Positions 1-52,982 of a stretch of DNA of 64,000 bases are shown here, piece after piece. The translations under genes and the position numbers were made by a program. Positions within the stretch are counted from its first letter, which is position 1. Each line of letters begins with the position of its first letter. The DNA comes from an uncultured bacterium (lineage in GTDB: Bacteria > GCA-001730085). The notes below the pieces were generated by a model, which did no database searches, was not told the DNA's origin, and was given only the letters and a program-made list of their open reading frames with translations. Location: contig CAZMGY010000026.1 in the NCBI GenBank assembly GCA_964565945.1, positions 472 through 64,471 of the forward strand, in the 5' to 3' direction.

Positions 1-635
1 TTAAAATATTGCATCAGGAAATGCGCGCCGGAATTGGTTGGGGTGAGACTTTGCGTCAAAATTTGGAGGATACTTTAAAAAAGACACTCAAGTTTGAGAC
101 AGCTTATAAAGGATTCTTGAGAATGCCGAAAGACGAAAGGCCCGAATGGGTTTCTGTTCTGGAAAACGCTGTAAATGTGATCGAGGAGTTGGAAAGCCTC
201 AAGCAGCTGCTTGATCGCTCGAGCAATGCAACAAAAAAATCTACGCTTGAGTTTAAGAGGATACATAGCGATTTGGAAGCAATTTATCAGAAGTGGTCTT
301 CTACGGGGATGCTCTCTTTAGCTCTAAAATCTGAGATGGATGCGAATTTAGCCCTTCTTTTAGGTCAAATAGTGAGCAACCTAAGGTTGGCGAGGGGTGA
401 AACCGAGGCTAAAGCTTTTTTGCAAGAGCAGTGGGCGGAACAAGATATTGCGAAGAAACCCTTTGATGCGGATGAGATGGTTAAGACTCTTTTGGAGTTG
501 TCTGATGATAAATACACACAGCAACGGATGAAGGCTTTTAAGGAAATGATGAATAGTGATGCAAATGTGGCTAAAACAGTTAGCAGGTATTTGAATGAGC
601 TTAACGAAATTTTACAAGTTCGCGCTTACGCTTAA
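1..635 (+). CDS. 3' end of a repeat-module protein (paralog of the next gene); the gene starts upstream of the window
   Basis: The reading frame is open from base 3. The translation (…KILHQEMRAGIGWGETLRQNLEDTLK…FETAYKGFL…DERPEWVS…) matches the ~135-aa repeat module and the C-terminal tail of the 706..3888 protein. The DNA block cgtcaaaatttgga is shared with every module of the neighbouring gene. Confidence 0.6.
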   Translation, partial: KILHQEMRAGIGWGETLRQNLEDTLKKTLKFETAYKGFLRMPKDERPEWVSVLENAVNVIEELESLKQLLDRSSNATKKSTLEFKRIHSDLEAIYQKWSSTGMLSLALKSEMDANLALLLGQIVSNLRLARGETEAKAFLQEQWAEQDIAKKPFDADEMVKTLLELSDDKYTQQRMKAFKEMMNSDANVAKTVSRYLNELNEILQVRAYA

Positions 636-705
636 GTTTTGACTGAATGGCGCAATTTATTATAAATAGTGTTATAATATTAAGCTTATAATCCAAAAAA
701 AAAGG

Positions 706-3700
706 ATGCTTTTAAAAATGTTTATGCGAATCCTTGTTATAAATCTTCTTATTTTTAAATTATTTAATATACATTATTTAATGGCTTTAGCTCCGAGAAG
801 TCACTTGTCTAAAATAGATGGACGCTCTTTGAATAGAAAGTCAACGAAAGTGAAACTTTTCAATGTGGAGCTTCTTTTTGGAGATTATAAATACACTGGA
901 AAAAAGATTCATCAGGATCCATCTTACACTGATCTTCAGAAAATCTATACCGAGCTTATGCCTTATTACACTTGGGGTGATAAGGCCCCTCAAGCCTTTC
1001 TTAACGATCAGACGCGAGATGAATACTCTTGGTTGCGTGTAGCAATGGCGGCAATGGCGAAGCAATCTTTTTTGGAATACCATGAGATTAAAGACTACCA
1101 GCGTAATGAAAGTGTCAATAAGGAGATTACCTTCACCCCAGATGATGTGAAGAGTATGGTTAATGTTGGGCAAGGGCTGTTGGCTTTGTGGAAAAAAGTT
1201 GAACCCGAGTTTGAAAATCAAAAAGACATCCAAGAGGTGTTTGCCAATTTTGTGCAGAAAAATTTGTATTTTGTTTTGTTGGAGGCGCCTTCTTTAAGAG
1301 GTGAAGTCTTGCGTGATGCCATTGTTTTTCAACTTTACGATCACTGGACGCGTTTTAAAGCCTTTGATTCCATTTTCGACGAAGATTATTGGAAACAATT
1401 TAAGGATCCTGCAAGAGCTATATTTGATTATAGCAGGGATTTGCGTTTACAAGAAACCGAGGATCAGAAGAAGGAACTGTCTGAGTACATCCAAAATATG
1501 GATACTGAAAGTAGCTCGGCTGACTGGGGTGCCCTCTTGTCTCGGTGGAGGAAACTTTTGCTAGAGAGGCTTGGTCAGGGGGAGCCTGCGCAAAGGTTAA
1601 TTCTGGATATGTTAAATAGATTTCGTTCTTATTACTTTTCGGAAGAGATGAATAGGATGCATCCTCCTGAAATTATTGCGTTTTTGACTTACTTGGACAC
1701 AACTCTTTTTCTGGAGAGCAAGATTGCCCCAAAGTTGCTGAATGTGCTTGAGTTTGTCTTTAAAAGTTTTCCTCGGGTGTTACTGGTCAAACCAGGAGAT
1801 CCTGAATATGTCCGTCGTATGCAAGGTCGCATGATGATTCTTTTCAAGAATAGGAGTGTGCTCGAGACCTTGTCAGAAAGTATAAGTGAACAAAAACTAG
1901 AGGTGGCTAGTAGTTTACTAGCTCACTTGATTGATTTTTATGCTGCGTCGGCTTCTGATTTTGATGAGATGGGAAAGATTAATTTGGAGAAGATTTTTGT
2001 GGATATTCTTAACAATGTGGACAGTCTCGAAAATCTTGTTGTTGTTTTTAAGGTATTGCATGAAGAAATGAACGCTGGAGATGGTTGGGAGAAGAATTTG
2101 CATCAAAATTTGAATGATGTTTTAAAGCCCCTACGCCACTTTGAGACAACTTATAAGAAGCTTTTGGAAGTGTCAGAAGATAAGAGGCCTGAATGGGTTT
2201 CTGCTATGGAGCGTGATAAAAATATAAATGTGATCAATGAGTTGGGGATCCTCAAAGATCTGCTTAATAAGTGGAGCCATGTAAACCGGTTTACGGTTGA
2301 CTTTAAGGCGGCATATAGGGAGTTGCAAGTAATTTATAAGAAGTGGGCTCAATCGATTACTATTTTAGCTGTAGAGTCTGAGATGAGTCAGGATGTACTC
2401 GTTTTCTTAAGTCAAATAGCTATCAATCTAAGCTTTGCACGTAGTGAAGCCGAGGCTAAAGCTTCTTTGCAAGAGCAATTGGAGAAAAAAGAGTTGAAGC
2501 AACCCTTTAATTATATTGAGGTTACTACTGGTTGGCAGAAGAATTTGCGTCAAAATTTATATGTTGCTTTAAGGGATACACGCCATTTGGAGAGAAATTA
2601 TAAAGAGTTGTTGGCAATGCCGGAAGACAAAAGGCCTAAATATGTTGCTGTTATTGAGGAAGATAAAAATGTAAATATGCACAAGGAGTTGGAGGCTCTC
2701 ACACAGCTTCTTAATCCCTTGATCTATGTAAACTGGTTGACGCTTGACTTTAAGACGATACATCATAGCAAGTTGCAATTCGCTTATAACAGGTGGGTTA
2801 AGAACATACTCCCTTTAGCTGTAAGGTCTAGGATGGATGAGGACTTACTCGTTCGCTTAGGTCATATAGCTGGAAATCTAAAGTTGGCACTTGGTGAAAT
2901 GAAGAAGCATCCTTCTTTGAAGGATTTGCATCAAAATTTGGATGATGTTTTAAGGGATACAGGCCTGTTGGAAAAAGTTTATAAAGAGTTGTTGGCACCG
3001 CAAGAAATAATACCTAAAGTGCTTTCTGTTAAGGAGAAAAATAACTATGCAACTATACTCAAGGAGTTGGAAATCCTCACACAGTGGGTGAGTGGTATAG
3101 ACCTGTCTAAGGTTGACGTTAAAATGATATTGAACAAGTTGCAAGTGCTTTATAAGAAGTGGGATACTGACTTGCTCCCTTTAGTTAAAAAGTTTGAGAC
3201 GAATGGGCCGCTATCCCTTTTGGTAAATCAAATGGTTAACAATCTAAAGTTGACACATAATGAAGTTAAAGTTGCTTTGCAAAAGCAATCGGAGAAAGAT
3301 GTTCCTATCAGCTGGGATAAGGATTTTCGTCAAAATTTGGATGGTGTTTTAAGGGGTACACGCCAGTTGGAGACAATTTATAAAGGGTTGCTGGCAGGGC
3401 CGAAAGAAGTAACCCCTAAAGAATTTTTTTATAGGAATAAAAAGACATTTTTAACTATTCTCAAGGAGTTGGAGAGCCTCAAACAGTGGATAGATAATGT
3501 AAAGCTGCTTAAGGTTGACGTTGAAATGATATATAGCGAGTTGCAACCGATTTATAAGAAGTGGGTTACTGAGTTGCTCCCTTTAATTATAGCTTCTGGG
3601 CCGCATCCGGTCGTATGCTGTTTGGTAAATCAAATGGTTAGAAATCTAAAGTTGGGGAGGGATGAAGCCGAAGCTAAAACTTCTTTGCAAAAACAATTGA

Positions 3701-3888
3701 AAAAACAAGAGTTTAAGCGACTCTTTGATTATACTGATGTTCAGATTTTTTTGGAGTTGTCTAAGGAGGCATCCACAGCACAAAGAATACAGGCTTTTAA
3801 ACAAATGATGGATAGTAACGAGGATCTGGCTAAAAAAATGGGCCAGTATTTGAATGGTTTTAACCGGGGTGTACAAGTCAACACTTAG
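706..3888 (+). CDS. Large hypothetical protein (1060 aa): unique ~450-aa N-terminal region followed by four ~135-aa tandem repeat modules
   Basis: Long ORF. Internal repeat modules begin near 2084, 2529, 2929 and 3310 and share the consensus GW.KNL.QNL.DVL…E..YK.LL……RP.(W/Y)V…EAEAK. A TATAAT lies at 673-678. The start codon is ambiguous (706, 718 or 724). No homology was recognised. Confidence 0.7.
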   Translation: MLLKMFMRILVINLLIFKLFNIHYLMALAPRSHLSKIDGRSLNRKSTKVKLFNVELLFGDYKYTGKKIHQDPSYTDLQKIYTELMPYYTWGDKAPQAFLNDQTRDEYSWLRVAMAAMAKQSFLEYHEIKDYQRNESVNKEITFTPDDVKSMVNVGQGLLALWKKVEPEFENQKDIQEVFANFVQKNLYFVLLEAPSLRGEVLRDAIVFQLYDHWTRFKAFDSIFDEDYWKQFKDPARAIFDYSRDLRLQETEDQKKELSEYIQNMDTESSSADWGALLSRWRKLLLERLGQGEPAQRLILDMLNRFRSYYFSEEMNRMHPPEIIAFLTYLDTTLFLESKIAPKLLNVLEFVFKSFPRVLLVKPGDPEYVRRMQGRMMILFKNRSVLETLSESISEQKLEVASSLLAHLIDFYAASASDFDEMGKINLEKIFVDILNNVDSLENLVVVFKVLHEEMNAGDGWEKNLHQNLNDVLKPLRHFETTYKKLLEVSEDKRPEWVSAMERDKNINVINELGILKDLLNKWSHVNRFTVDFKAAYRELQVIYKKWAQSITILAVESEMSQDVLVFLSQIAINLSFARSEAEAKASLQEQLEKKELKQPFNYIEVTTGWQKNLRQNLYVALRDTRHLERNYKELLAMPEDKRPKYVAVIEEDKNVNMHKELEALTQLLNPLIYVNWLTLDFKTIHHSKLQFAYNRWVKNILPLAVRSRMDEDLLVRLGHIAGNLKLALGEMKKHPSLKDLHQNLDDVLRDTGLLEKVYKELLAPQEIIPKVLSVKEKNNYATILKELEILTQWVSGIDLSKVDVKMILNKLQVLYKKWDTDLLPLVKKFETNGPLSLLVNQMVNNLKLTHNEVKVALQKQSEKDVPISWDKDFRQNLDGVLRGTRQLETIYKGLLAGPKEVTPKEFFYRNKKTFLTILKELESLKQWIDNVKLLKVDVEMIYSELQPIYKKWVTELLPLIIASGPHPVVCCLVNQMVRNLKLGRDEAEAKTSLQKQLKKQEFKRLFDYTDVQIFLELSKEASTAQRIQAFKQMMDSNEDLAKKMGQYLNGFNRGVQVNT

Positions 3889-4259
3889 GTCTTGACTGAG
3901 GCAGGGGATTCATCCTGAATACGTGAATGGCACAATTACCTGTGTTTTTTGTTGAGATCAACAAAGGGTATGCTCAGGTCAAACAAAAAATCGAGCTGTC
4001 AGACAAGATTGGACATCTTCGAGATAATGTGGGCGAAGCTCAGGAGATGCTCAAAGTTTGTTTTGTGAAGAGATTTTTTGCATGTATTAGCACTTTGCCA
4101 AAACAAACAAGTTGTCTTTTGGAATCATGGATCCCAATCTTCAGTAGCTAGCTAAAGTTAGAAATCAACCCCGAGTGTTCAGCTTTATAAAACTCTCTTT
4201 TAGGACTATGACTTAAAGTGATAAAATGCGGTCAGTATGTTTCGAAAAGGAGAAATGCA

Positions 4260-10791: not shown

Positions 10792-11562
10792 GTGAGACAG
10801 AGGAGTTTTCTTAATATGAAAGACGATTTGTTAAAGTTAGTTGAGCTAGAGAAAATAGATTTCAAAATTTATCAATTAAAACGTAGAAAAGAAGAATATC
10901 CTGTTTTGATTGAAGCTTGCCAACGTGATATGAACGAGCTTGAGGCTCATTTGAATGCGCTTAAAGAGTCTTCTAAACAGATCGAGCTTGCACGCAAAGA
11001 AAAAGAAATCGAAATTGAGTCCAATGAAGAGCAAATGAAAAAAAAAGACAATCAACTGACTCAAATTAAAAAAAATGACGAATATAAAGCCATGTTGCAT
11101 CAGATTGAAAAGTTCAAGAAAAAAAATGATCTCCTTGAGGAAGAAATTATTGTTAAAATGGATGAGCTTGATGCTGTTCAAGTTCAAATTAAGGACGAAG
11201 ATATTAGAGTTAAAGAGGGCAAAGAGCAAGTGGCTGCTCGAGAAAAGGAAATCAAAGTTAATTTGAGTAGATTGGAAGATGATAGGAAAAAACTCAAAAA
11301 CAATAGTGAACAGTGTTTGAATGGCTTAAGTCCCAAAATCAAAGACATCTATTTGCAAGTTTTGAACAAACGCAAAGACCGAGCCTTGGCTAGCATTAAA
11401 GAAGATACTTGCGGGGCTTGTCATATGGTTCTTCTGGCCGAGGTGATTGAGCAGACCCGAATGGGAGTTGATGTAATTTACTGTGACACCTGCTCGCGCA
11501 TTTTGTATCATCCCGATTTATTGGCTAAGGTATCGACCTCTCACTTGGATGATGTCCTCTAA
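10792..11562 (+). CDS. Zinc-ribbon coiled-coil protein (COG1579/DUF164-like)
   Basis: Long K/E-rich coiled coil followed by C-terminal CGAC…CDTC pairs. A TATAAT lies at 10764-10769. A likely alternative start is ATG 10816, downstream of AGGAG at 10801-10805. Confidence 0.65.
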   Translation: MRQRSFLNMKDDLLKLVELEKIDFKIYQLKRRKEEYPVLIEACQRDMNELEAHLNALKESSKQIELARKEKEIEIESNEEQMKKKDNQLTQIKKNDEYKAMLHQIEKFKKKNDLLEEEIIVKMDELDAVQVQIKDEDIRVKEGKEQVAAREKEIKVNLSRLEDDRKKLKNNSEQCLNGLSPKIKDIYLQVLNKRKDRALASIKEDTCGACHMVLLAEVIEQTRMGVDVIYCDTCSRILYHPDLLAKVSTSHLDDVL

Positions 11563-11972
11563 TGAGCACAACCTCTATGGTGACGATGTGTGCCGATGGA
11601 GCTTCGCGCGGTAATCCTGGTCCAGCGTCTTACGGGGTAATTTTCCGTGATGAAACGGGTAAAGTGATTCATAGTTTGGCCGAGTGCATTGGCAAAGCGA
11701 CCAATAATGTGGCCGAATATTCAGGTTTGATCGCAGGTTTGGAATATGCGGTGCAAGAAGGCATTTCTCACTTGCGGGTTTATCTCGATAGTGAATTGGT
11801 GGTCAAGCAAATAAAGGGTGTCTATCGGGTGCGTAATCACAATATCAAAACCTACTATAAAAAAGCCGTGGCATTGAGTGAACAAATTGAGTCATTTGTC
11901 ATTAACCATGTCCGTCGTGCCGACAATGCCGATGCAGATGCTCTGGCCAATCAAGCTTTGGATGCTTTATGA
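11562..11972 (+). CDS. RNase H-like protein (small type-1 RNase H)
   Basis: DEDD catalytic pattern: ADGASRGNPG…NNVAEY…YLDSELVV…ADNADADALAN. The start overlaps the upstream stop as TAATG, indicating translational coupling. Confidence 0.75.
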   Translation: MSTTSMVTMCADGASRGNPGPASYGVIFRDETGKVIHSLAECIGKATNNVAEYSGLIAGLEYAVQEGISHLRVYLDSELVVKQIKGVYRVRNHNIKTYYKKAVALSEQIESFVINHVRRADNADADALANQALDAL

Positions 11973-12742
11973 AAGACCGTTTGATCAATCGTTTTTTTAT
12001 TGAGCCTTCATCGATTGAACAGGAATCAATTGTATTGCGAGATACAGAGCTTTATCATGCTACGCGTGTGTTGCGTCTTAAAAAAAAAGATTTGTTCGAT
12101 GCGGTGGATGGTCAAGGTCGATGTTTTCGTGTCGAAATTCTTCATATCGATAAACAGCAAGCCGAATGCCGGATTCTCAAACGAGATAAAGTGGAACGCA
12201 AGCAAACCATTCGGCTTAGTTTAGCCTTGGCTTTGCCTAAAGAAAAAGTGATGACTTTGATGTTGCAAAAGTCCGTTGAGCTTGGGGTTTACCAAATCAT
12301 TCCTTTTATGGCCGAACGCTCTCAGGATTCATTAACACCCGAGTTATGCGACAAAAAAAAGACGCGTTGGACGCAAATTGTGCAAGAAGCGGTTAAGCAG
12401 TCGGGCAATGATTTTTTGCCACTATTGCAGTCTTTACAATCTTTGGAAGGTGTATGTGCACAGCTAAGTAAAGAGAGTTATGATGAAATTATTCTTTTGT
12501 CACCCTGGTGTAAAGATTCGTTCATTGATTTTGATCACCGCATGCGGCAGACGACAAATCCCAAACATGTGCTGGTTTGTATTGGACCCGAAGGCGGTCT
12601 AACCGAAGAGGAAGAGGAGCAATGGAAGTCCCATAGGGCACAGTCCTATAAATGTGGGGAATTATTGATGAGAGTCGAAACGGCGATGATGTTTGTCGCC
12701 ACAGCGAATTATTTATGGAATTTGGGGCATGACAAAATTTAG
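11969..12742 (+). CDS. rsmE: 16S rRNA (uracil1498-N3)-methyltransferase RsmE
   Basis: RsmE/DUF558 fold signature (N-terminal PUA-like region plus SPOUT C-terminus). ATGA overlap with the upstream gene. Confidence 0.8.
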   Translation: MKDRLINRFFIEPSSIEQESIVLRDTELYHATRVLRLKKKDLFDAVDGQGRCFRVEILHIDKQQAECRILKRDKVERKQTIRLSLALALPKEKVMTLMLQKSVELGVYQIIPFMAERSQDSLTPELCDKKKTRWTQIVQEAVKQSGNDFLPLLQSLQSLEGVCAQLSKESYDEIILLSPWCKDSFIDFDHRMRQTTNPKHVLVCIGPEGGLTEEEEEQWKSHRAQSYKCGELLMRVETAMMFVATANYLWNLGHDKI

Positions 12743-14198
12743 ATGGAGGACCCGTAAAGGCATAGGTCTTTTGCAGGTTGTTTTTAGTGTTTTTATTGCC
12801 ACGGCCTTAACGAGCTTGGTGTCCCCAACACTTCAAAAGCTGAGTGACCAAAGCAAACGTGTTTTGGTGGATGTCGACAAGGAGCAATTGGCCGTCGCTT
12901 TGGAACATTACTATCGCGACCAGGGTTTTTATCCCGAGGGGGATAATGTCAATATGGTGCAGGCCCTAAAAGATAAATACATTTCCTTTGCGTCAGAAAC
13001 GCTTAAAAACAATATTTTTGACAAAGCCGAGTTTGTCGACCCTTGGGGACGACCGTATCTTTATCATTACAAAAAAGGTGACAAGTCGTATCATTTGCGC
13101 TTTCAAGGTATGCCTGAGCGTCCTTTGTTTGGTTTGCCGAAGCCCTTGTTTAAACAAGAGACTCCTAATCGTCTCGGTGCTGGTGCGTCGTCAGAAAGCG
13201 AGGTTCAGCCTTCAGTGAATATTCAACCTGTCGAAATTGATAATAACGAGAGTGACCTTGGGCAAAACGACGTCTCTGTACCTGATGAGCCCGAAGCTTT
13301 GGATCTCTTGCCTTTGCATGCGATTCCTAACGATCGTTTGGTTTTTGTGACGGTCGAAAATGTTGCTTTGGCTTTGGATCGAGTTTTAATGAATCGTAAA
13401 GTGGGAACAGGGGAGTTCAGTGATTTGCCTTTGAGGGATTTCGATGCTAATGGAAACATTATTTGGTTTGAAGGAAGCACAGTGGTGAATGTGCTTGATT
13501 TTAACGTGCAAAATAGTGTGTCCTATGCTTACAAAGGCGAGTTTTGGATTGATTCCTTGCGCGATCAAACGGTGGCCACGCGAGAGGGTAGCGCGGTTCC
13601 TTCTGAAGAATTTGTGCAGGATTTAGCCCAAGCCAAAGCTTTGTTAGACGATGCTACTTTAGAGGTTGAGGGACAGTATGGTGTGAGCACGAAGGATATT
13701 TTTGCTACTCTGGTCACGCATAATGTTCCCATTATATGGGGTTACAAATCACGCCTTGAGTCTTCTGGGGGATTCGAGGAATCCACATTGGGATACACTT
13801 TGTCGTTTTCCGATCGCGTGACGGGAGAATTTCGTGAGTTTATTGTGGTCAATACACTTGAACTTAAGGATGAGCCTTTGAGCATGATTGCTTCCTTATT
13901 GGCTCACGAAGGTATTCATCACTATTGGAATCATCAAGCCCCAGAATTACCCAAAGAGGTAGCAGAATCGCTTGCGCCTGATGATTCTACCCCGCGTGGA
14001 GATGCTGGTCGGAGCTTTAATTCGGTCGATGAAGAGTATGAAGCCTTTTTGATGTCTTTACGTTTTTGGAAACAAGCACAAGGAGACGATAAAAATGAAA
14101 CGTTCGATCAGCTGTTGGCCTTGCTGAATGGACCGAATGGCGAGAAAGAATTGCGGGATTATATGAGGACGGTTTACCATGACTTGGATGAGTATTAG
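12729..14198 (+). CDS. Hypothetical secreted/membrane-anchored protein with an HExxH motif
   Basis: The ORF opens at 12693 inside rsmE. The likely start is ATG 12729 (MTKFRWRTRKG-IGLLQVVFSVFIATAL), a basic leader plus hydrophobic segment that loosely resembles a prepilin leader. The C-terminus carries LLAHEGIHH (HExxH) and a downstream EEYE. Confidence 0.5.
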   Translation: MTKFRWRTRKGIGLLQVVFSVFIATALTSLVSPTLQKLSDQSKRVLVDVDKEQLAVALEHYYRDQGFYPEGDNVNMVQALKDKYISFASETLKNNIFDKAEFVDPWGRPYLYHYKKGDKSYHLRFQGMPERPLFGLPKPLFKQETPNRLGAGASSESEVQPSVNIQPVEIDNNESDLGQNDVSVPDEPEALDLLPLHAIPNDRLVFVTVENVALALDRVLMNRKVGTGEFSDLPLRDFDANGNIIWFEGSTVVNVLDFNVQNSVSYAYKGEFWIDSLRDQTVATREGSAVPSEEFVQDLAQAKALLDDATLEVEGQYGVSTKDIFATLVTHNVPIIWGYKSRLESSGGFEESTLGYTLSFSDRVTGEFREFIVVNTLELKDEPLSMIASLLAHEGIHHYWNHQAPELPKEVAESLAPDDSTPRGDAGRSFNSVDEEYEAFLMSLRFWKQAQGDDKNETFDQLLALLNGPNGEKELRDYMRTVYHDLDEY

Positions 14199-17825: not shown

Positions 17826-19160
17826 ATGAATGTTTTCAATTTGTTTAGTCGAGGCGGCGTCTTTATGTTGACGGCTCTTATGGTCATGTTGAGTTCTAAC
17901 CTGTACGCGGCAGAGCTAACAGATGTGATTCAAGGGCTTGATACAGTATGGGTTTTGGTATGCGCCTTTTTGGTCTTTTTGATGCAAGCAGGATTCAGCT
18001 TGCTTGAGTCTGGGTTCGTGCGCGCCAAAAATACCTGTAACATCCTTATGAAGAATTATATGGACTTTTGTATGGCGTCAATTGGTTTCTTTATCTTTGG
18101 ATATGCCATTATGTTTGGTGAAGGAAACGGATTTATTGGCCTTAAAGGCTGGTTTTTAGTAGGAGCAGAAACTGCTGCCGACATTCCTTTACATGCTTTT
18201 TGGTTATTTCAAGCTGTTTTTGCTGGTACAGCCACGACGATCGTTTCTGGTGGTGTGGCTGAGCGTATGAAGTTTACCTCTTACCTTATTTGTTCTTTTA
18301 TCATTTGTGCCTTCATTTATCCTATTATCGGACACTGGACTTGGGGTGGTGGATGGTTAACTGTCATGGGTTTTACTGACTTTGCTGGTTCGACAATTGT
18401 TCATGCTGTGGGTGGTGTGGCTGCTTTGGCAGGAACTCTTATCCTTAAGCCTCGTATTGGACGTTTTAACAAGGATGGTTCAGCTAATGCGATTGCTGGA
18501 CATAATATCCCGATAGCGGCATTAGGCATATTTATCCTATGGTTTGGTTGGTTTGGTTTTAACTCAGGTTCTCAACTTGGTGTTGGTGCGGGATCCGAAA
18601 TCTCAATGATTGCTCTTAACACAAACTTATCAGCGGCAGCTGGTTGTATTATGGCGATGATTTCGGTGTGGGTTCTTTTTGGAAAACCAGATTTGTCGAT
18701 GACAATGAATGGTGCTTTGGCTGGACTTGTGGGTATCACCGCGGGTTGCGCGTTTGTTGAACCATGGGCTGCTATCCTTATTGGAGCCATTTCTGGTATT
18801 TTGGTTGTTGTTAGTGTTGTTATTTTAGACAAACTTCAAATTGATGATCCTGTTGGAGCTTTTCCTGTGCACGGTGTTTGTGGTATCTGGGGAACTCTTG
18901 CTGTAGGGATCTTTGGTGTTGCCAAATATGGTAGCGAAAATGGATTGCTTTATGGTGGAGGTTTTAGGCTGTTGATTACTCAATTGGTGGGTGTGGCTGC
19001 TATTTGTGGTTTTATTTTCGTGAGCATGACAGTGATCTTCAAAATTTTAGATGCGACTCTTGGATTACGTGTATCGAAAGAAGAAGAGCTTAAAGGCTTA
19101 GATATCGGAGAGCACGGGATGGAAGCCTATGCTGGTTTTCAAATTTTTACAACTAACTAA
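17826..19160 (+). CDS. amtB: Ammonium transporter (Amt family)
   Basis: Signal peptide plus 11 TM segments. Conserved Amt blocks including the DFAG.TIVH motif. Immediately followed by a P-II gene. Confidence 0.9.
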   Translation: MNVFNLFSRGGVFMLTALMVMLSSNLYAAELTDVIQGLDTVWVLVCAFLVFLMQAGFSLLESGFVRAKNTCNILMKNYMDFCMASIGFFIFGYAIMFGEGNGFIGLKGWFLVGAETAADIPLHAFWLFQAVFAGTATTIVSGGVAERMKFTSYLICSFIICAFIYPIIGHWTWGGGWLTVMGFTDFAGSTIVHAVGGVAALAGTLILKPRIGRFNKDGSANAIAGHNIPIAALGIFILWFGWFGFNSGSQLGVGAGSEISMIALNTNLSAAAGCIMAMISVWVLFGKPDLSMTMNGALAGLVGITAGCAFVEPWAAILIGAISGILVVVSVVILDKLQIDDPVGAFPVHGVCGIWGTLAVGIFGVAKYGSENGLLYGGGFRLLITQLVGVAAICGFIFVSMTVIFKILDATLGLRVSKEEELKGLDIGEHGMEAYAGFQIFTTN

Positions 19161-19211
19161 AAATTAAGTATTTATTTGAATATAAATTAAACTGGTTTAA
19201 GGGGAATACAA

Positions 19212-19553
19212 ATGAAACTAATTACGGCGATGATTCAGCCACATAAACTAACTGATGTTAAGAAAGCACTTTCCACGTGTGAAGTTGATAAAATGACAGT
19301 TACCAACGTTGTTGGGTGTGGACGCCAAAAGGGTTTTAGCGAAACATACCGTGGTGTTGTGCACGAAGTGAACCTGATCAAAAAGGTTCGTTTGGAGATA
19401 GCTGTGAACGATAACTTTGTCGAAAAGACCATTAATGCTATTATAGAAGGTGCGCGCACAGGCAATATTGGTGATGGGAAAATTTTTGTTGCCAGTTTGG
19501 AAGATTGTATCCGTATCCGTACAGGTGAGCGTGGAGAAGAGGCAGTTGGATAA
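19212..19553 (+). CDS. glnK: Nitrogen regulatory protein P-II (GlnK/GlnB)
   Basis: 113 aa starting [20 protein letters not shown], with the T-loop region YRG. Located next to amtB. Confidence 0.9.
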
Positions 19554-19577
19554 TGCCTATGATTTTAGACATAGGCA
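19554..19577. repeat. Perfect 8-bp inverted repeat (TGCCTATG-N8-CATAGGCA) directly after the glnK stop
   Basis: Read directly from the sequence. There is no T-tract after it. Possible attenuator or protein-binding site between glnK and glnA. Confidence 0.5.
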
Positions 19578-19641
19578 GAGGTGTGTTTGGATCCCTTGCC
19601 TCGGTCTTTTGTCTTAAATACAATGAAGAAAGGAAAAAAGG

Positions 19642-21060
19642 ATGAAGACATCTGAAGAGGTACTTAAGTTTATCAAGAAAGAAAGCATTGAGTTTATTGA
19701 CTTTCGTTTTATGGATTTTCCTGGAAAATGGCAACATTTTTCAGTTCCAACCAATCAAGTTGATGAGGGAACGTTTAACGAAGGATTGGGTTTTGATGGT
19801 TCTTCAATGCGTGGATGGCAAGCGATTAACGAAAGTGATATGATCGTTATTCCTGATCCAGCCACGGCCAAGATTGATCCTTTCACAGCTCATAAAACAA
19901 TCTTCATCATTTGTAATATTAAAGATCCTATTACAAGAGAAAACTATAGCCGTGATCCTCGTTACATTGCGATCAAAGCTGAAGAGTATTTGAAGTCAAC
20001 GGGCCTCGCTGACACAGCTTTTTTTGGTCCAGAAGCTGAATTTTTTATCTTCGATTCGATTCGTTATGGCACTGAACCTTCGGCGTCTTTTTTCGAAATC
20101 GATTCGATTGAAGCTGATTGGAATACTGGACGTGATGAAGATATGGGGAATTTAGGACATAAAATTCGTCATAAAGAAGGTTATTTTCCTTGTGCACCAA
20201 CCGATAAATTTCAGGATCTTCGTTCTGAGATGGTTGTTGAAATGATGAAAATGGGCATAGAAGTAGAATGCCAACATCACGAGGTGGCCACAGCTGGACA
20301 AGCAGAAATCGACATTAAATTTAACACGATGGTTGCCGTGGCAGATCAGTTGCAAGAGTATAAATACATTGTTAAAAATGTAGCTCACCGCGCAGGTTAC
20401 TCGGCGACATTTATGCCAAAACCATTGTTCTCGGATAATGGTTCAGGCATGCACACGCATATTTCTCTATGGAAAGATGGACAACCTTTGTTTGCTGGTG
20501 ATGGCTATGCGGGTCTTTCTGAGATGGCGTTGCACTTTATCGGTGGTATTTTGAAACATGCTAAAGGTTTGGTGGCTTTGTCTAATCCAACGAGTAGTTC
20601 TTATAAACGTTTGGTGCCTGGTTACGAAGCTCCAGTGAACTTGGCTTATTCAAGCCGTAATCGTTCCGCAGCGATTCGTATTCCTATGTACTCCGATAAT
20701 CCAAAGGCCAAACGTATTGAGTTCCGTTGCCCAGATCCTAGCTGTAACCCTTACATTGCTTTTTCTGCAATGCTTATGGCAGGTCTTGATGGGATTCAAA
20801 ATAAGATTGACCCAGGGGCACCACTGGATAAAAACATTTACGATCTTCCTGCAGAAGAGTTGGCTAAAGTGGATAACACTCCATTCTCGTTGCGCGATGC
20901 TCTCGAAGCTCTAAGAAAAGATCATGAGTATTTGTTGAAAGGTGATGTTTTCACCAATGATGTAATTGAAACATGGATTGATTACAAGTTGGAAAACGAA
21001 GTGGAAGCTTTGGAACTTCGTCCACATCCTTATGAGTTCCAATTGTACTACGACATCTAA
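19642..21060 (+). CDS. glnA: Glutamine synthetase, type I
   Basis: 472 aa with GS beta-grasp and catalytic-domain motifs. RBS GGAAAAAAGGATG. A candidate promoter TTGCCT-17-TACAAT lies upstream. Confidence 0.9.
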
Positions 21061-40062: not shown

Positions 40063-42432
40063 GTGAGATCTTTTTTTTTAAGTATTTATGTATTTTCGGT
40101 GCTCATTAGTTCCGTTCTTTGGGGGCTAGCTGTGCCGAGCTTTGTCGGTGATATTAACTATATTCAACTAGGGAGCGACTATTTTCTCTCGTTTCGTTTG
40201 CCCGAAGAGACGAAGGAATACAGCCTTACACATCATAGTGTGAAATTTTCTATGCAAGGCAGCACCTTTAACGCCTATCAAGGGAAGAGTGTCTACCTTC
40301 TTCCAGAATTAAAGATTGATTGTTTGAAAGATCTAGCCATCGATAAGGATTATGCTAGGGCTTTGCTTCGTTTGATTATTGATTTGAATGAGGAGGAGAT
40401 CTTACGTCGCACTAAGGTCATGTTGCTCAATTCTCTAGTCAAGTTTATGGCATATATGTTGGACGATAGCGATGTGGAATCGATTATGAGGCCTTGGTTG
40501 CAAAACTTAACGTTTAGTTCGTTGGAGGAGGCCATTATTGTGTCGGATGTGGAATGGAAAGAGCGAGAGGGTTTTAATTTGATTCTTTTAGATCCATTCT
40601 ATATGGGTGATAACGTTTATTATGGTCCCGTTGTGTTCGAAAACAAGAATGTTCATTTGATTAAGCATACAAGTAAAGCTGCGAAGGATTCTGTGCTTCG
40701 TAAGTCTGGGCAGACGTATTTGTTTACTAATCATGCGTATTTGTTTACTAATCATGTTAATAATATTGAGATAAATGAATTGTTGAATGATTCTGAGCGG
40801 CAGGTTGTGGAAGATTTTTTAGCCATTAATATCCGAGAAACGATCTACTTAAAAAAGATCGAGCATCAAAAGTTACCAGATTTTTCTTCAATACTGGGAA
40901 CATATTGGCTTTCCCCGAAACATGTCGAAGAGTTTAGGCAATATGGGAATCAAGACAGGATTTGCGCCTTATATCATGAGTTGATTGCCGATGGTGTCGA
41001 AGAGGCCCGAGTTAAGGAATGGATGCTTCGTTTGATGGCTGCTTATTATCAAGATCCAGTGACCATGGAGCCTGTTATAGGAGAAGATAATGTTGTGCGC
41101 AAGATTGAGCCAAGTAAGGGGCATCGGATGGATATTAACGAAATACTCTATCTTGAACTGGCGATGAATGTGCTGATAGATGCTAGAAAACATTTGATTA
41201 AAGAAGAAAAGGATGTTCGTCGGCAGAGGGCTTTTTGGGGCATGGTCAATGTCAATCTAGAAAAGATTGTCCAAGGGATACATTTGATTCCACTAAGGTT
41301 CCATTCGAAGTTGATTTTTCATCGGGCTCAGCACTTGTGGTCGCAATTGACTTTTTTGTTCAATTGTCCCGAAATAGACTATTGGCAAAAGGTCCCAAAT
41401 AATCCAGCTTGGATGCCTCTAGAACAAGAGCAAGCTGCTTTTGATTTTTATGCCCAGCCCAGAAGGCGTAAGGATTTGAATATTTTGTATAAATGGATGT
41501 TTGATATATACGAACATCAGCATCCACCAAAGCATGTGATGGAGTTTTTGAATGCTCACCGCCAAACACATTTCTATCATCCTAAGTTCTGTAAGCTCGA
41601 CGGGAACATGACCTCTTGGTTAGGCTTAAAGCTTAAGAAAAAAAATATTCGAGAGCAGAGAGACTTCTTAGGATTGATGGAGGGTGCCGATCGGCGTTAT
41701 CGAAGCTATGGTATTCAAAGCGAATTGTGGTTTGAGCACTTAGCTAACAATATGGATAATTTTGAAGAGCTACTGCGTAATCACATGTTATTCTCCCCTT
41801 CGTCCCCAATGTTCGCTACAGTTTTAGCCGATTTGATTTATGTTACGTTTCTCTTGGAGAAACGGCCTAAGATTGCAAATGACAACATCGGACAAACGCT
41901 TCTTAAGATTTTGAAAGATCCTGAACAGTTTTCTCAATGGAACATAGAAACAATCCATGGACTTTTGGATGAAATTGTGCAAAAAACAAAGGGTGCTGGC
42001 TTTGACCAAGAGAATCCTCGTACGCTTGATGATCTCATAGGAGAAATGGGTTGGGGCAAAGGGTCTATGGAAAAGCCGACTTGGCAAAGTTTGTTTTTGT
42101 ATTTTGTTTTTCAAGATGAGAGACAAGATAATCTTCTAAATGTGCGTGTGCGTCAGAGTTTTGCACTTAGTGATAGGGAAGAGCCGATCTATATTGAACT
42201 TTCGCATGACTCTTACGATGCTTTAAAAGCAATGATCGAGGAATGGGGTTATGGTGATTATGAGCTTATTCTTAGTGATACGAAGCACGGGTTTCCAACT
42301 TCTCTCGTGATAACCGAAAATAACTATTTACGTGTTTTTCATTCGAGGTTTATCGACAAGGGACAACTTTATCTAAGGCCTAAAAGGGGATCCTCAACGC
42401 AGATCTATAAATTTATTTTTAAACAAGCTTAA
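40063..42432 (+). CDS. Hypothetical secreted protein (789 aa), ORFan
   Basis: GTG start with a hydrophobic signal-like N-terminus. No domain was recognised. Candidate promoter TTGATA-17-TGTTAAAAT at 40024-40056. A T9 tract lies at 40071-40079, within codons 3-6. Confidence 0.55.
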   Translation: MRSFFLSIYVFSVLISSVLWGLAVPSFVGDINYIQLGSDYFLSFRLPEETKEYSLTHHSVKFSMQGSTFNAYQGKSVYLLPELKIDCLKDLAIDKDYARALLRLIIDLNEEEILRRTKVMLLNSLVKFMAYMLDDSDVESIMRPWLQNLTFSSLEEAIIVSDVEWKEREGFNLILLDPFYMGDNVYYGPVVFENKNVHLIKHTSKAAKDSVLRKSGQTYLFTNHAYLFTNHVNNIEINELLNDSERQVVEDFLAINIRETIYLKKIEHQKLPDFSSILGTYWLSPKHVEEFRQYGNQDRICALYHELIADGVEEARVKEWMLRLMAAYYQDPVTMEPVIGEDNVVRKIEPSKGHRMDINEILYLELAMNVLIDARKHLIKEEKDVRRQRAFWGMVNVNLEKIVQGIHLIPLRFHSKLIFHRAQHLWSQLTFLFNCPEIDYWQKVPNNPAWMPLEQEQAAFDFYAQPRRRKDLNILYKWMFDIYEHQHPPKHVMEFLNAHRQTHFYHPKFCKLDGNMTSWLGLKLKKKNIREQRDFLGLMEGADRRYRSYGIQSELWFEHLANNMDNFEELLRNHMLFSPSSPMFATVLADLIYVTFLLEKRPKIANDNIGQTLLKILKDPEQFSQWNIETIHGLLDEIVQKTKGAGFDQENPRTLDDLIGEMGWGKGSMEKPTWQSLFLYFVFQDERQDNLLNVRVRQSFALSDREEPIYIELSHDSYDALKAMIEEWGYGDYELILSDTKHGFPTSLVITENNYLRVFHSRFIDKGQLYLRPKRGSSTQIYKFIFKQA
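40726..40767 (+). repeat. Perfect in-frame 21-bp tandem duplication (cgtatttgtttactaatcatg x2; YLFTNHA/YLFTNHV)
   Basis: Read directly from the sequence: 40726-40746 equals 40747-40767. Confidence 0.9.
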
Positions 42433-42554
42433 AAGGATCACTGATGAGGATCAATTCCTGGCTTGATTTTATCCTAATGTTATAGTATGATATCTTGGAT
42501 ACCTTTAGGGTTTCCCTATTAAAGTTTAAAGGAAAATCTAACAAAGAGGTTGTT

Positions 42555-45500
42555 ATGCCACGTTTTTTACCAAAAAAAGAAGGTTTATATCGCCCCGATT
42601 ATGAACATGATGCGTGTGGGGTGGGGTTTATTGCTCATCTCAAAGGACAAAAGTCACATGATATTGTGAGCAAAGGTATCGAATTATTGCTTAACTTGGA
42701 GCATCGTGGTGCGGTGGGTGCCGAACATAACTCTGGTGATGGAGCTGGTATTTTAATTCAATTGCCACACGCTTTTTTTCAATCCCTATCGGGTGAATTG
42801 GGGTTTGAGGTTCCTGAATTTGGTCATTATGGTGTCGGACAGGTTTTCTTGCCTCCTCAGGAAGATTTGCAAGCCCAATGTCGTGAAATTTTTGAATGTT
42901 GTGTGCGTGAATGTGGTCAAGAGGTCTTGGGATGGCGTTCAGTTCCTCAGGACAATTCGGTCTTAGGTAGCATGGTCAGAGAGCTTGAACCAGAAATGGC
43001 TCAGGTGTTCATTAAACGTGACGGAGGCTGTCCCGACGACTTGGCTTTTGAACGTAAGTTGTTTGTGATTCGCAAATACGCCCAAAATCAAATTTTAAAG
43101 CAGGTTAAAGGTGCCGATCAGTATTATTACGTTGGTTCACTGTCTTACAAGACGGTGGTTTACAAAGGTCAGTTGATCACCACTCAGTTAGCGGGCTTTT
43201 TTGATGATTTGCGCAATCCCGAAACAATCTCGGCGATTGCTTTGGTTCACAGTCGTTTTTCGACCAACACCTTTCCAAGTTGGCCTTTAGCGCAACCGTT
43301 TCGTTATTTGGCTCACAACGGTGAGATTAACACCCTGCGCGGGAACATCAATTGGATGCGAGCTCGTCAAAGTTTGTTTAAATCAAATGTGTTCACCGAG
43401 GACGAAATGAGCAAAATTTTACCCATTTTGGATGAGGATGGATCAGATTCGGCCGTTTTGGATAATGCAATTGAATTTTTGACCCTGGCAGGTCGTTCAT
43501 TGCCGCATGTGATGATGATGATGATTCCCGAAGCTTGGGAAAAACACACTGAAATGAACCCTGAACAAAGAGCTTTTTATGAATTTCATGCAACACTCAT
43601 GGAGCCTTGGGATGGACCCGCTTCGGTGATTTTCACCGATGGTCAATTTATTGGTGCAACCTTGGATCGTAACGGTTTGCGTCCTTCGCGCTATTGCTTA
43701 ACCAAAGATGATGTTTTGGTGATGGCTTCCGAGCAAGGTGCTTTGGAATTTGTGCCCGAAGATATTGTTCTTAAAGGGTGCTTGCAGCCAGGCAAAATGT
43801 TTTTAGCCGATCTTGAGCAAGGCTGGATTGTTCCCGATGTTGAAGTGAAAGCTCAGTTGGCGAATGCTCAGCCTTATGGAGAATGGATTGATCAACAAAA
43901 AATCGAGCTAAGTGATTTGCCTTTTGATTACCCCGTTAAACAGCCCGATCATGAGACGACTCTTAAACGCCAGAAGTGTTTTGGCTATAGCTTGGAAGAG
44001 CTAAGATTGCTTGTAGAACCAATGTTTAGCACTGGGTACGAAGCGATTGGGTCGATGGGTAATGATGCGCCAGTGGCGGTTTTGTCGGATAAGTCGATCA
44101 ATTTGTTCAACTATTTTCATCAACTTTTTGCTCAGGTGACCAATCCTCCGATTGATCCAATCCGTGAAGAAGCCATTATGAGCTTAACCACGTTTTTAGG
44201 ACCCCAAGGTAACATTTTGGATGAGAAGGATGAGCGTTACTTTGTCGAAATGCCTCAGCCATTGATCACTGATGAGCAAATGGCTCGTTTGAACGGAGCC
44301 AATACCGAATATTTGAAAGCGAAAACATTGCCGATGTTGTTTGATCCGAAAAAGGGAGGTCTTAAAATAGCTGTTGAAGCTTTGTGCGATGTTGCTGTCC
44401 AAGCGGTTCAGGAAGGCCATTCAGTGATTGTTCTTTCGGATCATTCTGTGAGTGCCAGCCAAGCGCCGATTCCTTCGCTATTAGCGACATCCGCGGTACA
44501 TCATCGTTTGATTAAAGCTGGATTAAGAACACAGTGTGGTTTGGTAATTGAGACGGGTGAGGCTCGTGAGGTTCATCATTTTGCTGTCTTGATTGGTTAT
44601 GGAGCCAATGCGATCAATCCATACTTGGTCTTTGAAAGTGTTAAAGATATGCAACAGCGTCACTATTTGGATGCGGAGATTAGCCAAGAACAAGCTGAAG
44701 CCAATTTTATTTATGCCGTGGGTAAAGGTTTATTAAAGATCATGTCTAAAATGGGTATCTCGACCGTTCAGTCCTACATGGGGGCGCAGATTTTTGAAGC
44801 GGTTGGATTAGGTGAAGAACTGATTGATAATTATTTCTGTGGAACAGCTTCGCGCATAGGTGGTATCGGTTTTGCCGAGCTTGAAGAAGAAACCTTGATT
44901 CGCCATCGTTTTGCCTATCCTTCGAAAGATACCGAGGGGGATCATACCGATATTGATGGCGGAGGTCAGTATCAGTGGAGACAACGAGGCGAGCGTCACT
45001 TATTCAGCCCAGATGTGGTGCATTTGTTACAACGTTCGGTGCGTCAAAACAATTATGACATGTATAAGCAGTTTACCGTTTTGGTTAACGATCAAAATAA
45101 ACAATTGTTAACCTTGCGTGGTTTGCTCGACTTCGATAATCGCGAATCAATTTCGCTGGATGAAGTTGAGCCGAGCGAAGCTATTTGCAAGCGTTTTGCG
45201 ACTGGTGCTATGTCTTACGGCTCAATTTCAATAGAAGCCCACACAACTTTGGCAATCGCTATGAACCGGATTGGTGGCAAAAGTAATACAGGTGAAGGGG
45301 GTGAAGATCCTAAGCGATTCGAGCCCATGGAGAACGGCGACAATGCCTGTTCTGCCATTAAACAAGTGGCTTCGGGACGTTTTGGCGTAACGTCCAATTA
45401 TCTTGTGCATTCCGAAGAAATTCAAATCAAGATTGCTCAGGGAGCTAAGCCTGGTGAGGGTGGTCAGCTACCTGGTTACAAAGTGGATGATATTATCGGT

Positions 45501-47075
45501 AAAGTTAGACATTCAACGCCTGGTGTTGGTCTGATATCACCTCCTCCTCATCATGACATTTACTCGATTGAGGATTTGGCTCAGTTGATTTTTGACCTTA
45601 AAAACTCAAACACTTCGGCGCGGATTAATGTAAAATTGGTGTCCGAGGTTGGTGTGGGAACTGTGGCTACTGGTGTGGCCAAGGCACACGCCGATGTGGT
45701 GTTGATTGCGGGCTACGACGGGGGAACAGGTGCTTCTCCGCAAACATCGATCAAGCATGCAGGTTTGCCTTGGGAGCTTGGTTTGGCCGAAACACATCAA
45801 ACACTTGTTAAAAATAAATTGCGCAACCGTATTGTGGTTCAGACCGATGGTCAAATTCGTACTGGACGTGATTTGGCAATTGCGACTCTTTTGGGTGCCG
45901 AGGAATGGGGTGTGGCCACTGCAGGATTGGTGGCTATCGGTTGTATTATGATGCGTAAGTGTCATTTGAATACCTGTCCAGTCGGGATTGCGACGCAAGA
46001 TAAAGATTTACGGGTTCTGTATCATGGTGAAGCTGATCATGTGGTGAACTACTTCCGTTTTATGGCCGAAGAGCTTCGGGAAATTATGGCCGAACTTGGT
46101 TTTCGCACGGTTAATGAAATGGTGGGACGCGTTGACAAGTTGAAAGCCCGTAAGGATGTTTCGCATTGGAAAGCCAAAACCTTGCGTTTGGAAGATTTGT
46201 TGCACAAAATGGCTGAAAGCCAAGATGGTCAAGATTTCTGTTATGAAACTCAAGATCATGGTTTGGAAACAGCTTTGGATTATGAACTTCTAGCCAAAGC
46301 GAAAGATGCGATTGAATCCAAAAAACCTGTTCAAGAGAACATTCATTTGCGCAATATCAATCGGACAGTCGGAACGATTTTATCGGCCGAGGTGACTCGG
46401 GCTCATGGCGAAGAAGGTTTAGCCGCCGATATGATTCATTTCAAAGCGACAGGAAGTGGTGGACAAAGTCTAGGAGCTTTCAGTGTTTCTGGAGTTACCT
46501 TTGAACTCGAGGGGGACGCTAACGATTATTTTGGCAAAGGGATGTGTGGAGGTCGTTTGATTCTTTATCCTCCCAAACAATCAACCTTTGTTCCCGATGA
46601 GAATGTAATTGTTGGCAACGTAGCCTTTTATGGAGCGACCAGTGGAGAATCTTATATTCGCGGATTGGCGGGCGAACGTTTTTGCGTAAGAAACTCTGGG
46701 GTTGAGGTGGTTGTTGAAGCTGTCGGGAATCATGGTTGTGAATATATGACGGATGGTCGTGTGATTATTTTGGGCGAGATCGGTCGTAACTTTGCTGCAG
46801 GGATGAGTGGTGGAATTGCTTATATCTTTGATGAGAACGATACCTTAACGCATCGCATCAATTCTGGCTTAGTTGATTTAGAACAGATTGAGGATGGTGA
46901 GGAATCTAGCTTTGTGAAAGGCAAGATTCAAAATCACTTCGATTACACAGGAAGTCGCAATGCAGAGCGTATTTTGCAAGATTGGGACATGAACAAAACT
47001 AAGTTTATCAAGGTTATGCCTCGCGATTACAAGAGAGTCTTGATGGAACGTCAACAGGTAGCGGCTTTTGCCTAA
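42555..47075 (+). CDS. gltB: Glutamate synthase large subunit
   Basis: N-terminal amidotransferase Cys (…[10 protein letters not shown]), then FMN and GXGXG domains. The ORF opens at 42495, but AAGAGG sits 6 nt before ATG 42555 (MPRFLPKK). Confidence 0.9.
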
Positions 47076-47099
47076 GACAAGGAACAGGATAACAGAATT

Positions 47100-48587: not shown

Positions 48588-48605
48588 CTGGGGGATGGAA
48601 AACAT

Positions 48606-49703: not shown

Positions 49704-49760
49704 TTTGAGAGATGTTCGCAGGCCGATAACGTCTTAATTATTAATGAGGAAGCATGCCAA

Positions 49761-52700: not shown

Positions 52701-52982
52701 AAGCAAGCGGGTGTTAAGGTTCGTGAGATTTCTTCGATCACGCCTGACAAAGAGGATTTGTTGGATATGATTGAAAAAGGTAAAATTCGCTTAGTTATCA
52801 ATACCCCCTCGGGGCAGAAAAGCCAGACGGATATGAAAAAAATTCGAGCCAGTGCGGTGATGCATGATATTCCTTCGATCACAACCATTCAAGGCGCGTG
52901 CGCCGCGATTAAGGCAATCGAACATATCAAGCAAAATGATATCTGCGTTAAGACTATCCAGGAGTACCATTCCGTTTTGTAG
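49761..52982 (+). CDS. carB: Carbamoyl-phosphate synthase large subunit
   Basis: 1073 aa with duplicated ATP-grasp halves, an oligomerisation domain and a C-terminal MGS-like domain. Confidence 0.95.

Follow-up and report, generated by a model that had tools for sequence, protein, structure and literature searches.

What has shaped the repeat-bearing protein encoded at the start of a 64,000-nucleotide (nt) stretch of DNA from an uncultured bacterium (contig CAZMGY010000026.1 of assembly GCA_964565945.1, positions 472 to 64,471 of the forward strand; hereafter the window), and what might this protein do? The gene encodes 1060 amino acids (aa), in which four consecutive modules follow a non-repetitive N-terminal region, and it lies directly behind the 3' end of a paralog. 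Together with a broken copy on a 4.4-kb contig, these two genes, the upstream one partial, form an intact, lineage-restricted gene family of at least three members. From silent sites far below saturation, we infer that the four modules of the 1060-aa protein probably arose by recent internal tandem duplication; the codon comparisons also suggest that selection favours or preserves amino-acid differences between them. Our reading, tentative and given a probability of about 0.45, is that the gene encodes a modular binding protein, restricted to this lineage, on which diversifying selection acts against a co-evolving partner; it is plausibly exported or anchored. The family is previously undescribed and very narrowly distributed. 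Its fold is generic, and it does not amount to a system of a new kind.

Repeat architecture of the locus

The initial annotation, made from the letters of the DNA, described a unique N-terminal half followed by four modules of about 135 aa. The four modules were recovered with both BLASTP and a hidden Markov model (HMM). The 210-aa upstream fragment aligned with segments 449-606, 609-740, 741-867 and 863-1058 of the 1060-aa protein (E = 1e-38, 5e-25, 3e-15 and 8e-36), and the HMM built from the modules found exactly four copies (453-601, 602-731, 731-864 and 863-1007; i-E 4e-58 to 4e-75). Both searches show the modules to be homologous, a point on which a self-alignment could have gone the other way. 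The N-terminal "half" turned out to be 452 aa, or 43% of the protein, and is followed by modules of 149, 127, 133 and about 149 aa and a tail of about 50 aa.

The five modules, that of the fragment included, are pairwise 33-52% identical and share 18 invariant columns, among them Q-N-L, Y-K, E-L, Y..W and N-L. The longer motif string that had been proposed as common to all of them fits M1 and the fragment well, whereas M2 is without its EAEAK element and M3 and M4 are without (D/E)KRP. The shared DNA block CRTCAAAATTTR occurs five times in the 64 kb against 0.23 expected, once in each of the five modules (at 54, 2101, 2548, 2929 and 3328), just as had been noted. Module start-to-start spacings are 447, 381 and 399 nt, equal to 149, 127 and 133 aa. 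Further module copies were not found elsewhere in the window. The possibility that the N-terminal region consists of degenerate modules was rejected, since the module HMM, BLASTP and hhalign showed no significant similarity between residues 1-452 and the modules.

The upstream fragment carries the same module and the same tail, as the initial annotation had it, with BLASTP E values down to 1e-38 and tail DNA (480-628 against 3739-3887) that is 70% identical; the two tail peptides are QQRMKAFKEMMNS and AQRIQAFKQMMDS. Both genes lie on the same strand with a 70-nt spacer (636..705), and so there are at least two tandem paralogs. The start of the fragment, KILHQEMRAGIGW, resembles the junction between the N-terminal region and M1 of the 1060-aa protein (KVLHEEMNAGDGW; KVLHEEM), not the inter-module junctions. 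On the strength of this match the upstream paralog probably consists of an N-terminal region, a single module and a tail, and the long gene would have expanded the module to four copies. The spacer has promoter-like hexamers on the + strand (TTGACT at 639-644, TGTTATAAT at 670-678 and TATAAT at 687-692), which are consensus matches only; they were not among the sites listed by a promoter scan, which showed no excess over shuffled sequences.

Module 1 was modelled with AlphaFold using the five modules as the alignment (predicted local distance difference test, pLDDT, 86.9; predicted template-modelling score, pTM, 0.80). The model comprises five helices, four of them long (5-35, 44-51, 57-72, 81-105 and 110-146), and is a confidently predicted helical bundle of generic type. 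When it was compared by Foldseek with PDB and BFVD, the best neighbours were only generic four-helix bundles with E >= 0.13, none of them significant. The single-sequence AlphaFold model of the full-length protein was unusable (pLDDT 37.5), yet uniformly helical.

Neither the single protein nor the module profile matched Pfam, NCBIfam, PADLOC, PHROGs or the sequences in PDB, in agreement with the earlier statement that no characterised family was recognisable. A TPR, HEAT or spectrin match, which would have pointed to a known repeat family, was not found in Pfam or NCBIfam. TPR, HEAT, Armadillo and ankyrin solenoids were rejected as candidates: their units are of about 33-47 aa, the unit here is three to four times longer, no matches were obtained and the model is a closed bundle. 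The coordinates of the locus are collected in Table 1.

Table 1. Features of the repeat locus, in window positions.
Feature	Position	Strand	Remarks
Gene of the 1060-aa all-alpha modular protein	706..3888	+	ORF; secondary structure all helical in single-sequence AlphaFold
3' end of the upstream paralog, 210 codons and TAA (633-635)	3..635	+	Frame 3; open from the window start, where the gene is cut
Content of the upstream fragment: junction peptide KILHQEM, one module, C-terminal tail	3..635	+	
Hydrophobic N-terminal segment, residues 1-29, MLLKMFMRILVINLLIFKLFNIHYLMALA	706..792	+	Hydropathy
Non-repetitive helical N-terminal region, residues 1-452	706..2061	+	
Module M1, residues 453-601	2062..2508	+	
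Module M2, residues 602-728, without the last helix extension	2509..2889	+	
Module M3, residues 729-861	2890..3288	+	
Module M4, residues 862-1010	3289..3735	+	
C-terminal tail, residues 1011-1060, and stop codon	3736..3888	+	Homologous to 480-635 of the upstream gene

The repeat gene is followed, ahead of the PEPCK gene, by a 74-aa open reading frame (ORF) at 3927-4151, which is annotated as a gene on one public contig (L012) and may be spurious. It was without a match in PADLOC and PHROGs, and no Pfam family is on record for it.

Divergence between the modules

The repeats had been called rapidly evolving, and the codon comparisons bear this out. By the NG86 method, the ratio of non-synonymous to synonymous divergence (dN/dS) was 0.99-2.1 across all ten module pairs, and LWL85 and the maximum-likelihood method of Biopython gave the same direction. 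The pooled dN/dS was 1.45 with a bootstrap 95% confidence interval of 1.04-1.97 (119 ungapped columns). Our own implementation of a one-ratio Goldman-Yang-type likelihood gave omega values of 2.55-2.86 under four codon-frequency schemes, with likelihood ratio test (LRT) statistics against omega = 1 of 25-30 (p ~1e-7), and about 2.7 on all three topologies (F3x4). In 60 null simulations with omega = 1, the largest omega was 1.61 and the largest LRT 7.7. Amino acids have changed faster than silent sites, a pattern known from proteins in a molecular arms race.

Silent divergence between the modules is far from saturation, with dS of about 0.2-0.45. At aligned positions with the same amino acid, the codon was identical in 76-93% of cases compared with 38-44% expected from the codon usage of the gene, and differences at codon positions 1 and 2 equalled or exceeded those at position 3. 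As a control from the same genome we used the two internal halves of CarB, which are 38% identical in amino acids. Their third positions differ at 66%, with a proportion of synonymous differences (pS) of 0.72 and an omega of 0.28; the CarB internal duplication is ancient and behaves normally.

Such figures might also arise under relaxed selection or incipient pseudogenisation, in which the copies drift after duplication and any amino acid is tolerated. The comparisons with the upstream fragment (pairwise dN/dS 0.99-1.4) and the tail (0.86) lie near 1, as drift would have it. However, the 818 repeat codons contain no stop, whereas 5% neutral divergence should already have introduced about seven or more, and no indel shifts the reading frame; neutral decay of the modules was rejected on these two grounds. 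Omega = 1 was rejected as well, the LRT of 25-30 standing far outside the null simulations, and neither the 18 invariant columns nor the confident fold obtained from five copies agrees with free drift. We consider relaxed selection quite unlikely, the broken third copy described below having been taken into account.

Other sources of the pattern could lie in the DNA itself. The modules are evenly similar in DNA over their length, with no sign of a mosaic, and the substitution spectrum is ordinary. A diversity-generating retroelement target was rejected, as the differences span all base pairs with about 50% transitions and without adenine bias. A reverse transcriptase did not turn up among the scanned ORFs of the window, and the RNase H gene is of the ordinary rnhA type. 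No RNA family of Rfam was found in the 64-kb window.

Three minus-strand ORFs of 63-69 aa (75-266, 2569-2778 and 2950-3144) are mutually similar and occupy the same position in the modules of the fragment, M2 and M3. Since M1 and M4 have no listed ORF of 60 aa or more at that position, these ORFs most likely result from the repetition itself and are not genes. Antisense dual coding as a cause of silent-site conservation was rejected on the same distribution.

Family members and strain variation

An exhaustive HMMER (phmmer) search of 1.84 billion representative proteins returned three matches only: the protein itself (P0001), an 88-aa ORF (P0002) and a 102-aa ORF (P0003). All three are recorded in NCBI only, and P0002 and P0003 are each on a contig of 4429 bp. 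Since P0003 ends at the residue aligned to 452 and P0002 begins at 455, we take the two as the halves of a single broken third copy, from which 65 aa and 10 aa have also been deleted. Residues 294-316 and 382-452 of the 1060-aa protein are common to P0003 at 51-55% identity. A search for additional paralogs had been suggested, and this copy, outside the window, is what it brought up. In a word-index search the single protein found only itself and the module profile found only P0002. Looking up the exact sequences of P0001 and P0002 brought up no recorded contig.

The initial annotation called the family lineage-specific, and further searches agreed with this. Two JGI metagenome scans gave no relatives, and three loci from relatives (L013-L015) contain no homolog. 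The 29-nt DNA pattern of the module, run against the GTDB-representative genomes (a set to which the source genome does not belong), found no copy, only a chance site in a metagenome-assembled genome of the Flavobacteriales. The orphan status of the family, the splitting of the third copy into two ORFs with its two deletions, and one strain allele with prolines inside predicted helices are the further points that favour relaxed selection.

Strain contigs were fetched via the neighbouring AcrB and PEPCK genes from ten public sequencing runs. Runs SRR19987526, SRR19984991, SRR23257892, SRR30680226, SRR30680197, SRR12008129 and SRR12008131 carry this strain; a literature search for the run numbers gave nothing. 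Housekeeping proteins of the window are identical on 11-24 public-run contigs, and the 1056-aa protein is on one contig only. Contigs from seven Sequence Read Archive runs (eight loci, L002, L003 and L006-L011, two of them from one run) start exactly at window position 1324, inside the 1060-aa gene, where there is no low-complexity sequence or in-window repeat. The most economical explanation of the break would be that an unseen paralog has a block of 31 nt or more in common with the gene; local hypervariability is the other suggestion.

Among these near-identical strains, the polymorphisms of the 1060-aa gene lie between 1747 and 2042 and are all non-synonymous (L348I, A416P, L441P and V446A). 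Three of the four fall within 92 nt (1951-2042), and at two of the four sites the alternative allele has the proline of the paralog P0003. This cluster suggests either a gene-conversion tract between family members or clustered derived replacements. On contig L010 (7.9 kb) all four mismatches are in the 1060-aa gene, as is the sole mismatch of contig L009 (8.3 kb). Outside the repeat gene, the 19-kb contig L002 has four synonymous changes, four non-synonymous changes and one intergenic change.

These observations could be put together as a small recombining cassette system, in which tandem and dispersed paralogs would exchange segments by gene conversion, the modules would duplicate and diversify under positive selection, and an exposed binding or antigenic protein would vary at the population level. 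Its footprints would be the identical break at 1324 shared by all fetched samples, the three single-nucleotide polymorphisms (SNPs) clustered within 92 nt and the global dN/dS above 1. We regard such a system as unlikely.

A second systematic break was seen away from the repeats. The 21.36-kb versions of the same contigs all end at about 22679, inside a 1282-aa gene (22342-26190) of which an N-terminal NADAR domain (residues 69-223) is the only recognisable part, about 1000 aa being unannotated. A XerC/D-type recombinase gene (21345-22241) adjoins it.

Genomic setting, proposed role and comparison with known systems

The N-terminus was considered for signs of export. The candidate starts are 706, ATG 718 (used for the database copy P0001, of 1056 aa) and ATG 781 (M26). 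Within residues 1-29 there are a basic n-region and a hydrophobic core; A-L-A at 27-29 comes directly before Pro30, a lipobox would lack its Cys, and the start is uncertain. They may be a putative signal peptide or anchor, or an untranslated AT-rich leader if translation starts at 781. This single stretch is the only strongly hydrophobic one in the protein; a weaker one (956-978) is inside module 4. A chlamydial Inc protein was rejected for this reason, such proteins having two adjacent transmembrane segments of about 40-60 aa in all.

The window encodes central and nitrogen metabolism, with GS-GOGAT, CarAB, PEPCK and PFK, and also an RND efflux pump, SMC and SecDF. The nitrogen-assimilation set (17826-21060 and 42495-52982) includes an ammonium transporter, P-II, glutamine synthetase, both glutamate synthase subunits and carbamoyl-phosphate synthase; being full, it argues against the strongly reduced metabolism of an obligate parasite. 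G+C is about 39-46%, and GC skew is strongly and uniformly positive (0.10-0.30 in every 2-kb bin of the window). The + strand carries 32 of the 36 listed ORFs of at least 150 aa; of the remaining four, two are contained in + strand ORFs. The repeat genes look native rather than recently transferred, because their composition is the same as that of the rest of the window. A 789-aa ORF at 40063-42432 has no Pfam or NCBIfam match at E <= 1e-5 and is possibly an orphan protein.

The gene of a CT398/CdsZ-family protein lies 7 kb downstream of the repeat gene. It belongs to a cluster (10792-14198, with RNase H, an RsmE methyltransferase and a long protein of 464-501 aa that is GspG pseudopilin-like in the window) which, unlike the region upstream of it, is kept in the nearest relatives (L013-L015), among them 'PVC group bacterium (ex Bugula neritina AB1)'. 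This bacterium also has the closest named homolog of the CT398-like protein, at 52% identity. Its genome of 1.9 Mb is deeply divergent, is assigned to candidate division NPL-UPA2 and is placed inconsistently within the PVC (Planctomycetes-Verrucomicrobia-Chlamydiae) superphylum (PMC5041132). The host is, by these sequences, a divergent bacterium of the PVC superphylum and not demonstrably a chlamydia, the chlamydial identity at first read from the CT398-like neighbour having been downgraded in view of this nearest homolog.

With this neighbour in mind, we considered whether the protein could be an effector that a chlamydia-like intracellular bacterium secretes by a type III system, comparable to the expanded chlamydial effector families. 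Effectors are typically fast-evolving and present as tandem paralogs, tandem arrays of expanded effector families have been described (PMC4209131), and with M26 as the start the N-terminus (MALAPRSHLSKIDGRSLNRK...) would be polar and serine-rich with few acidic residues. On the other hand, the CdsZ model of NCBIfam is matched at 86 bits against a cut-off of 275, and Helicobacter HP0958 is a match to this family as well. The nearest relative with a name has been assigned to NPL-UPA2, not to the Chlamydiae, and no type III secretion gene is present in the window alongside GS-GOGAT, CarAB, PEPCK and PFK. A type III effector role cannot be assumed, because this relative is non-chlamydial and the metabolism is ordinary, and we consider it improbable.

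A second proposal places the protein inside the cell as an anti-phage or conflict sensor, with C-terminal repeats that would recognise phage proteins and an N-terminal region that would be the effector. The combination of a unique N-terminal region and positively selected C-terminal repeats with tandem paralogs, patchy distribution and intraspecific polymorphism is a feature set of defence genes. Against this, PADLOC and PHROGs gave no match (a known anti-phage defence protein was rejected at PADLOC E <= 0.1), Pfam gave no NTPase, nuclease or other enzymatic domain, and the genes directly next to it, for PEPCK and an efflux pump, do not form a defence island. This proposal seems to us highly improbable.

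A modular binding protein under diversifying selection remains our preferred reading. Its helical bundles would each fold independently and line up as a rod or array, and each bundle would offer a protein-binding surface. Duplication and diversifying selection, probably with gene conversion between paralogs, would widen or shift what the protein can bind as it is pitted against a co-evolving partner, for instance a host, phage or competitor. Export or membrane anchoring via the N-terminal hydrophobic segment is plausible.

Several points weigh against this reading. Of the named relatives, the closest comes from a bryozoan metagenome and is a divergent PVC bacterium; the window encodes ordinary metabolism, and no secretion-system genes for effectors were seen in its 64 kb. 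The third copy is broken, so the family is able to decay. The start codon is ambiguous among 706, 718 and 781, and cleavage after A29 would leave Pro30 at +1, a position where proline is disfavoured by signal peptidase I. The N-terminal 452 aa are without a usable structure model. The likelihood values of omega come from our own codon model and not from PAML, and this model leaves out repeat recombination and multi-nucleotide mutations. Omega was 2.3 in hydrophobic-class columns compared with 2.85 elsewhere, and because it exceeds 1 even in the former, the signal may come partly from depressed or homogenised silent divergence (e.g. concerted evolution by gene conversion, the amino-acid differences being preserved by selection) and not from surface-only diversification. 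Either way, selection acts on protein-level differences.

The last of these points is also the core of a further alternative, an ordinary intracellular structural or scaffold protein (cytoskeletal, a spectrin- or talin-like rod, or membrane-organising) that would have no antagonist and whose high dN/dS would arise artificially, from silent sites that are constrained or have been homogenised. An effect at silent sites agrees with the similar omega of hydrophobic and polar columns, and the clustered SNPs that match the paralog suggest gene conversion. The protein appears as a chain of helical bundles with talin R4 among its top, non-significant fold matches, and the gene is among housekeeping genes, on the leading strand and of native composition. 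But gene conversion homogenises silent and replacement sites alike and alone cannot lift dN/dS above 1, the DNA identity of the modules is not mosaic, and no antisense ORF is conserved in all modules. A housekeeping role would also predict homologs in relatives, where none were found. We judge a scaffold role rather unlikely.

The interest of the locus is chiefly its unusually clear signature of post-duplication diversification. It would be a compact natural example of a new helical-bundle domain that was duplicated within a gene and driven apart by selection. The interval after duplication in which early divergence is visible is very small, and positive selection went undetected in chlamydial families (PMC4209131). 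A whole-domain global dN/dS above 1 is rare in bacteria, and here it would be caught in this early interval. If the signal instead reflects concerted evolution of silent sites, the locus is a cautionary case for the dN/dS of intragenic repeats. The protein is also a candidate interaction protein in a PVC lineage of essentially unknown biology, and its partner, once identified, would show what the organism interacts with, be it a host, a phage or a competitor.

Among known proteins, the top Foldseek match was the cytosolic copper storage protein Csp3/Ccsp (6ei0; TM score 0.57-0.68, E = 0.18, 7-9% identity). Csp proteins have many cysteines lining the core of the bundle. The 1060 residues here contain only two (0.2%), and with so weak a likeness Csp was rejected; the resemblance of the model is generic to the four-helix-bundle fold. 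IncA, the chlamydial inclusion-membrane protein, has a helical-bundle cytosolic domain and a PVC origin, and 6e6a is among the weak fold matches. In contrast to IncA, the bilobed hydrophobic domain was not found here, the match is poor (E 0.31, TM 0.39, root-mean-square deviation 10.6) and the chlamydial identity of the source is not demonstrated.

Like spectrin, the family has tandem all-alpha units that make elongated proteins. The spectrin unit is a three-helix bundle of about 106 aa, whereas the modules here have a period of 127-149 aa and are modelled with five helices, four of them long; the spectrin repeat (PF00435) was rejected, with no Pfam match at E <= 1. The rods of talin, vinculin and alpha-catenin are modular binding rods of consecutive, independently folding 4-5-helix bundles of about 120-160 residues, and a plan of this type is proposed here too. 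Talin R4 (2lqg) was the second-ranked PDB fold match to module 1, though not significant (E 0.22, TM 0.44-0.46, 16% identity). Unlike the talin and vinculin rods, the modules have no Pfam match, are bacterial and are recent duplicates with dN/dS above 1.

Like the PEX and NEX effectors of the Parachlamydiaceae, the family is lineage-specific in a PVC-group bacterium, occurs in tandem copies and shows birth and death with broken copies. PEX and NEX reportedly also carry leucine-rich repeats. They have F-box or BTB-box domains, and their dN/dS is 0.29-0.63, positive selection not having been detected (PMC4209131). The repeat family differs in being without those domains, in having about three members and in its dN/dS above 1 between repeats. 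Should the recombining cassette system, unlikely as we consider it, be the correct account, the family would be a helical-bundle analogue, in a poorly known PVC lineage, of antigenic-variation and variable-receptor systems.

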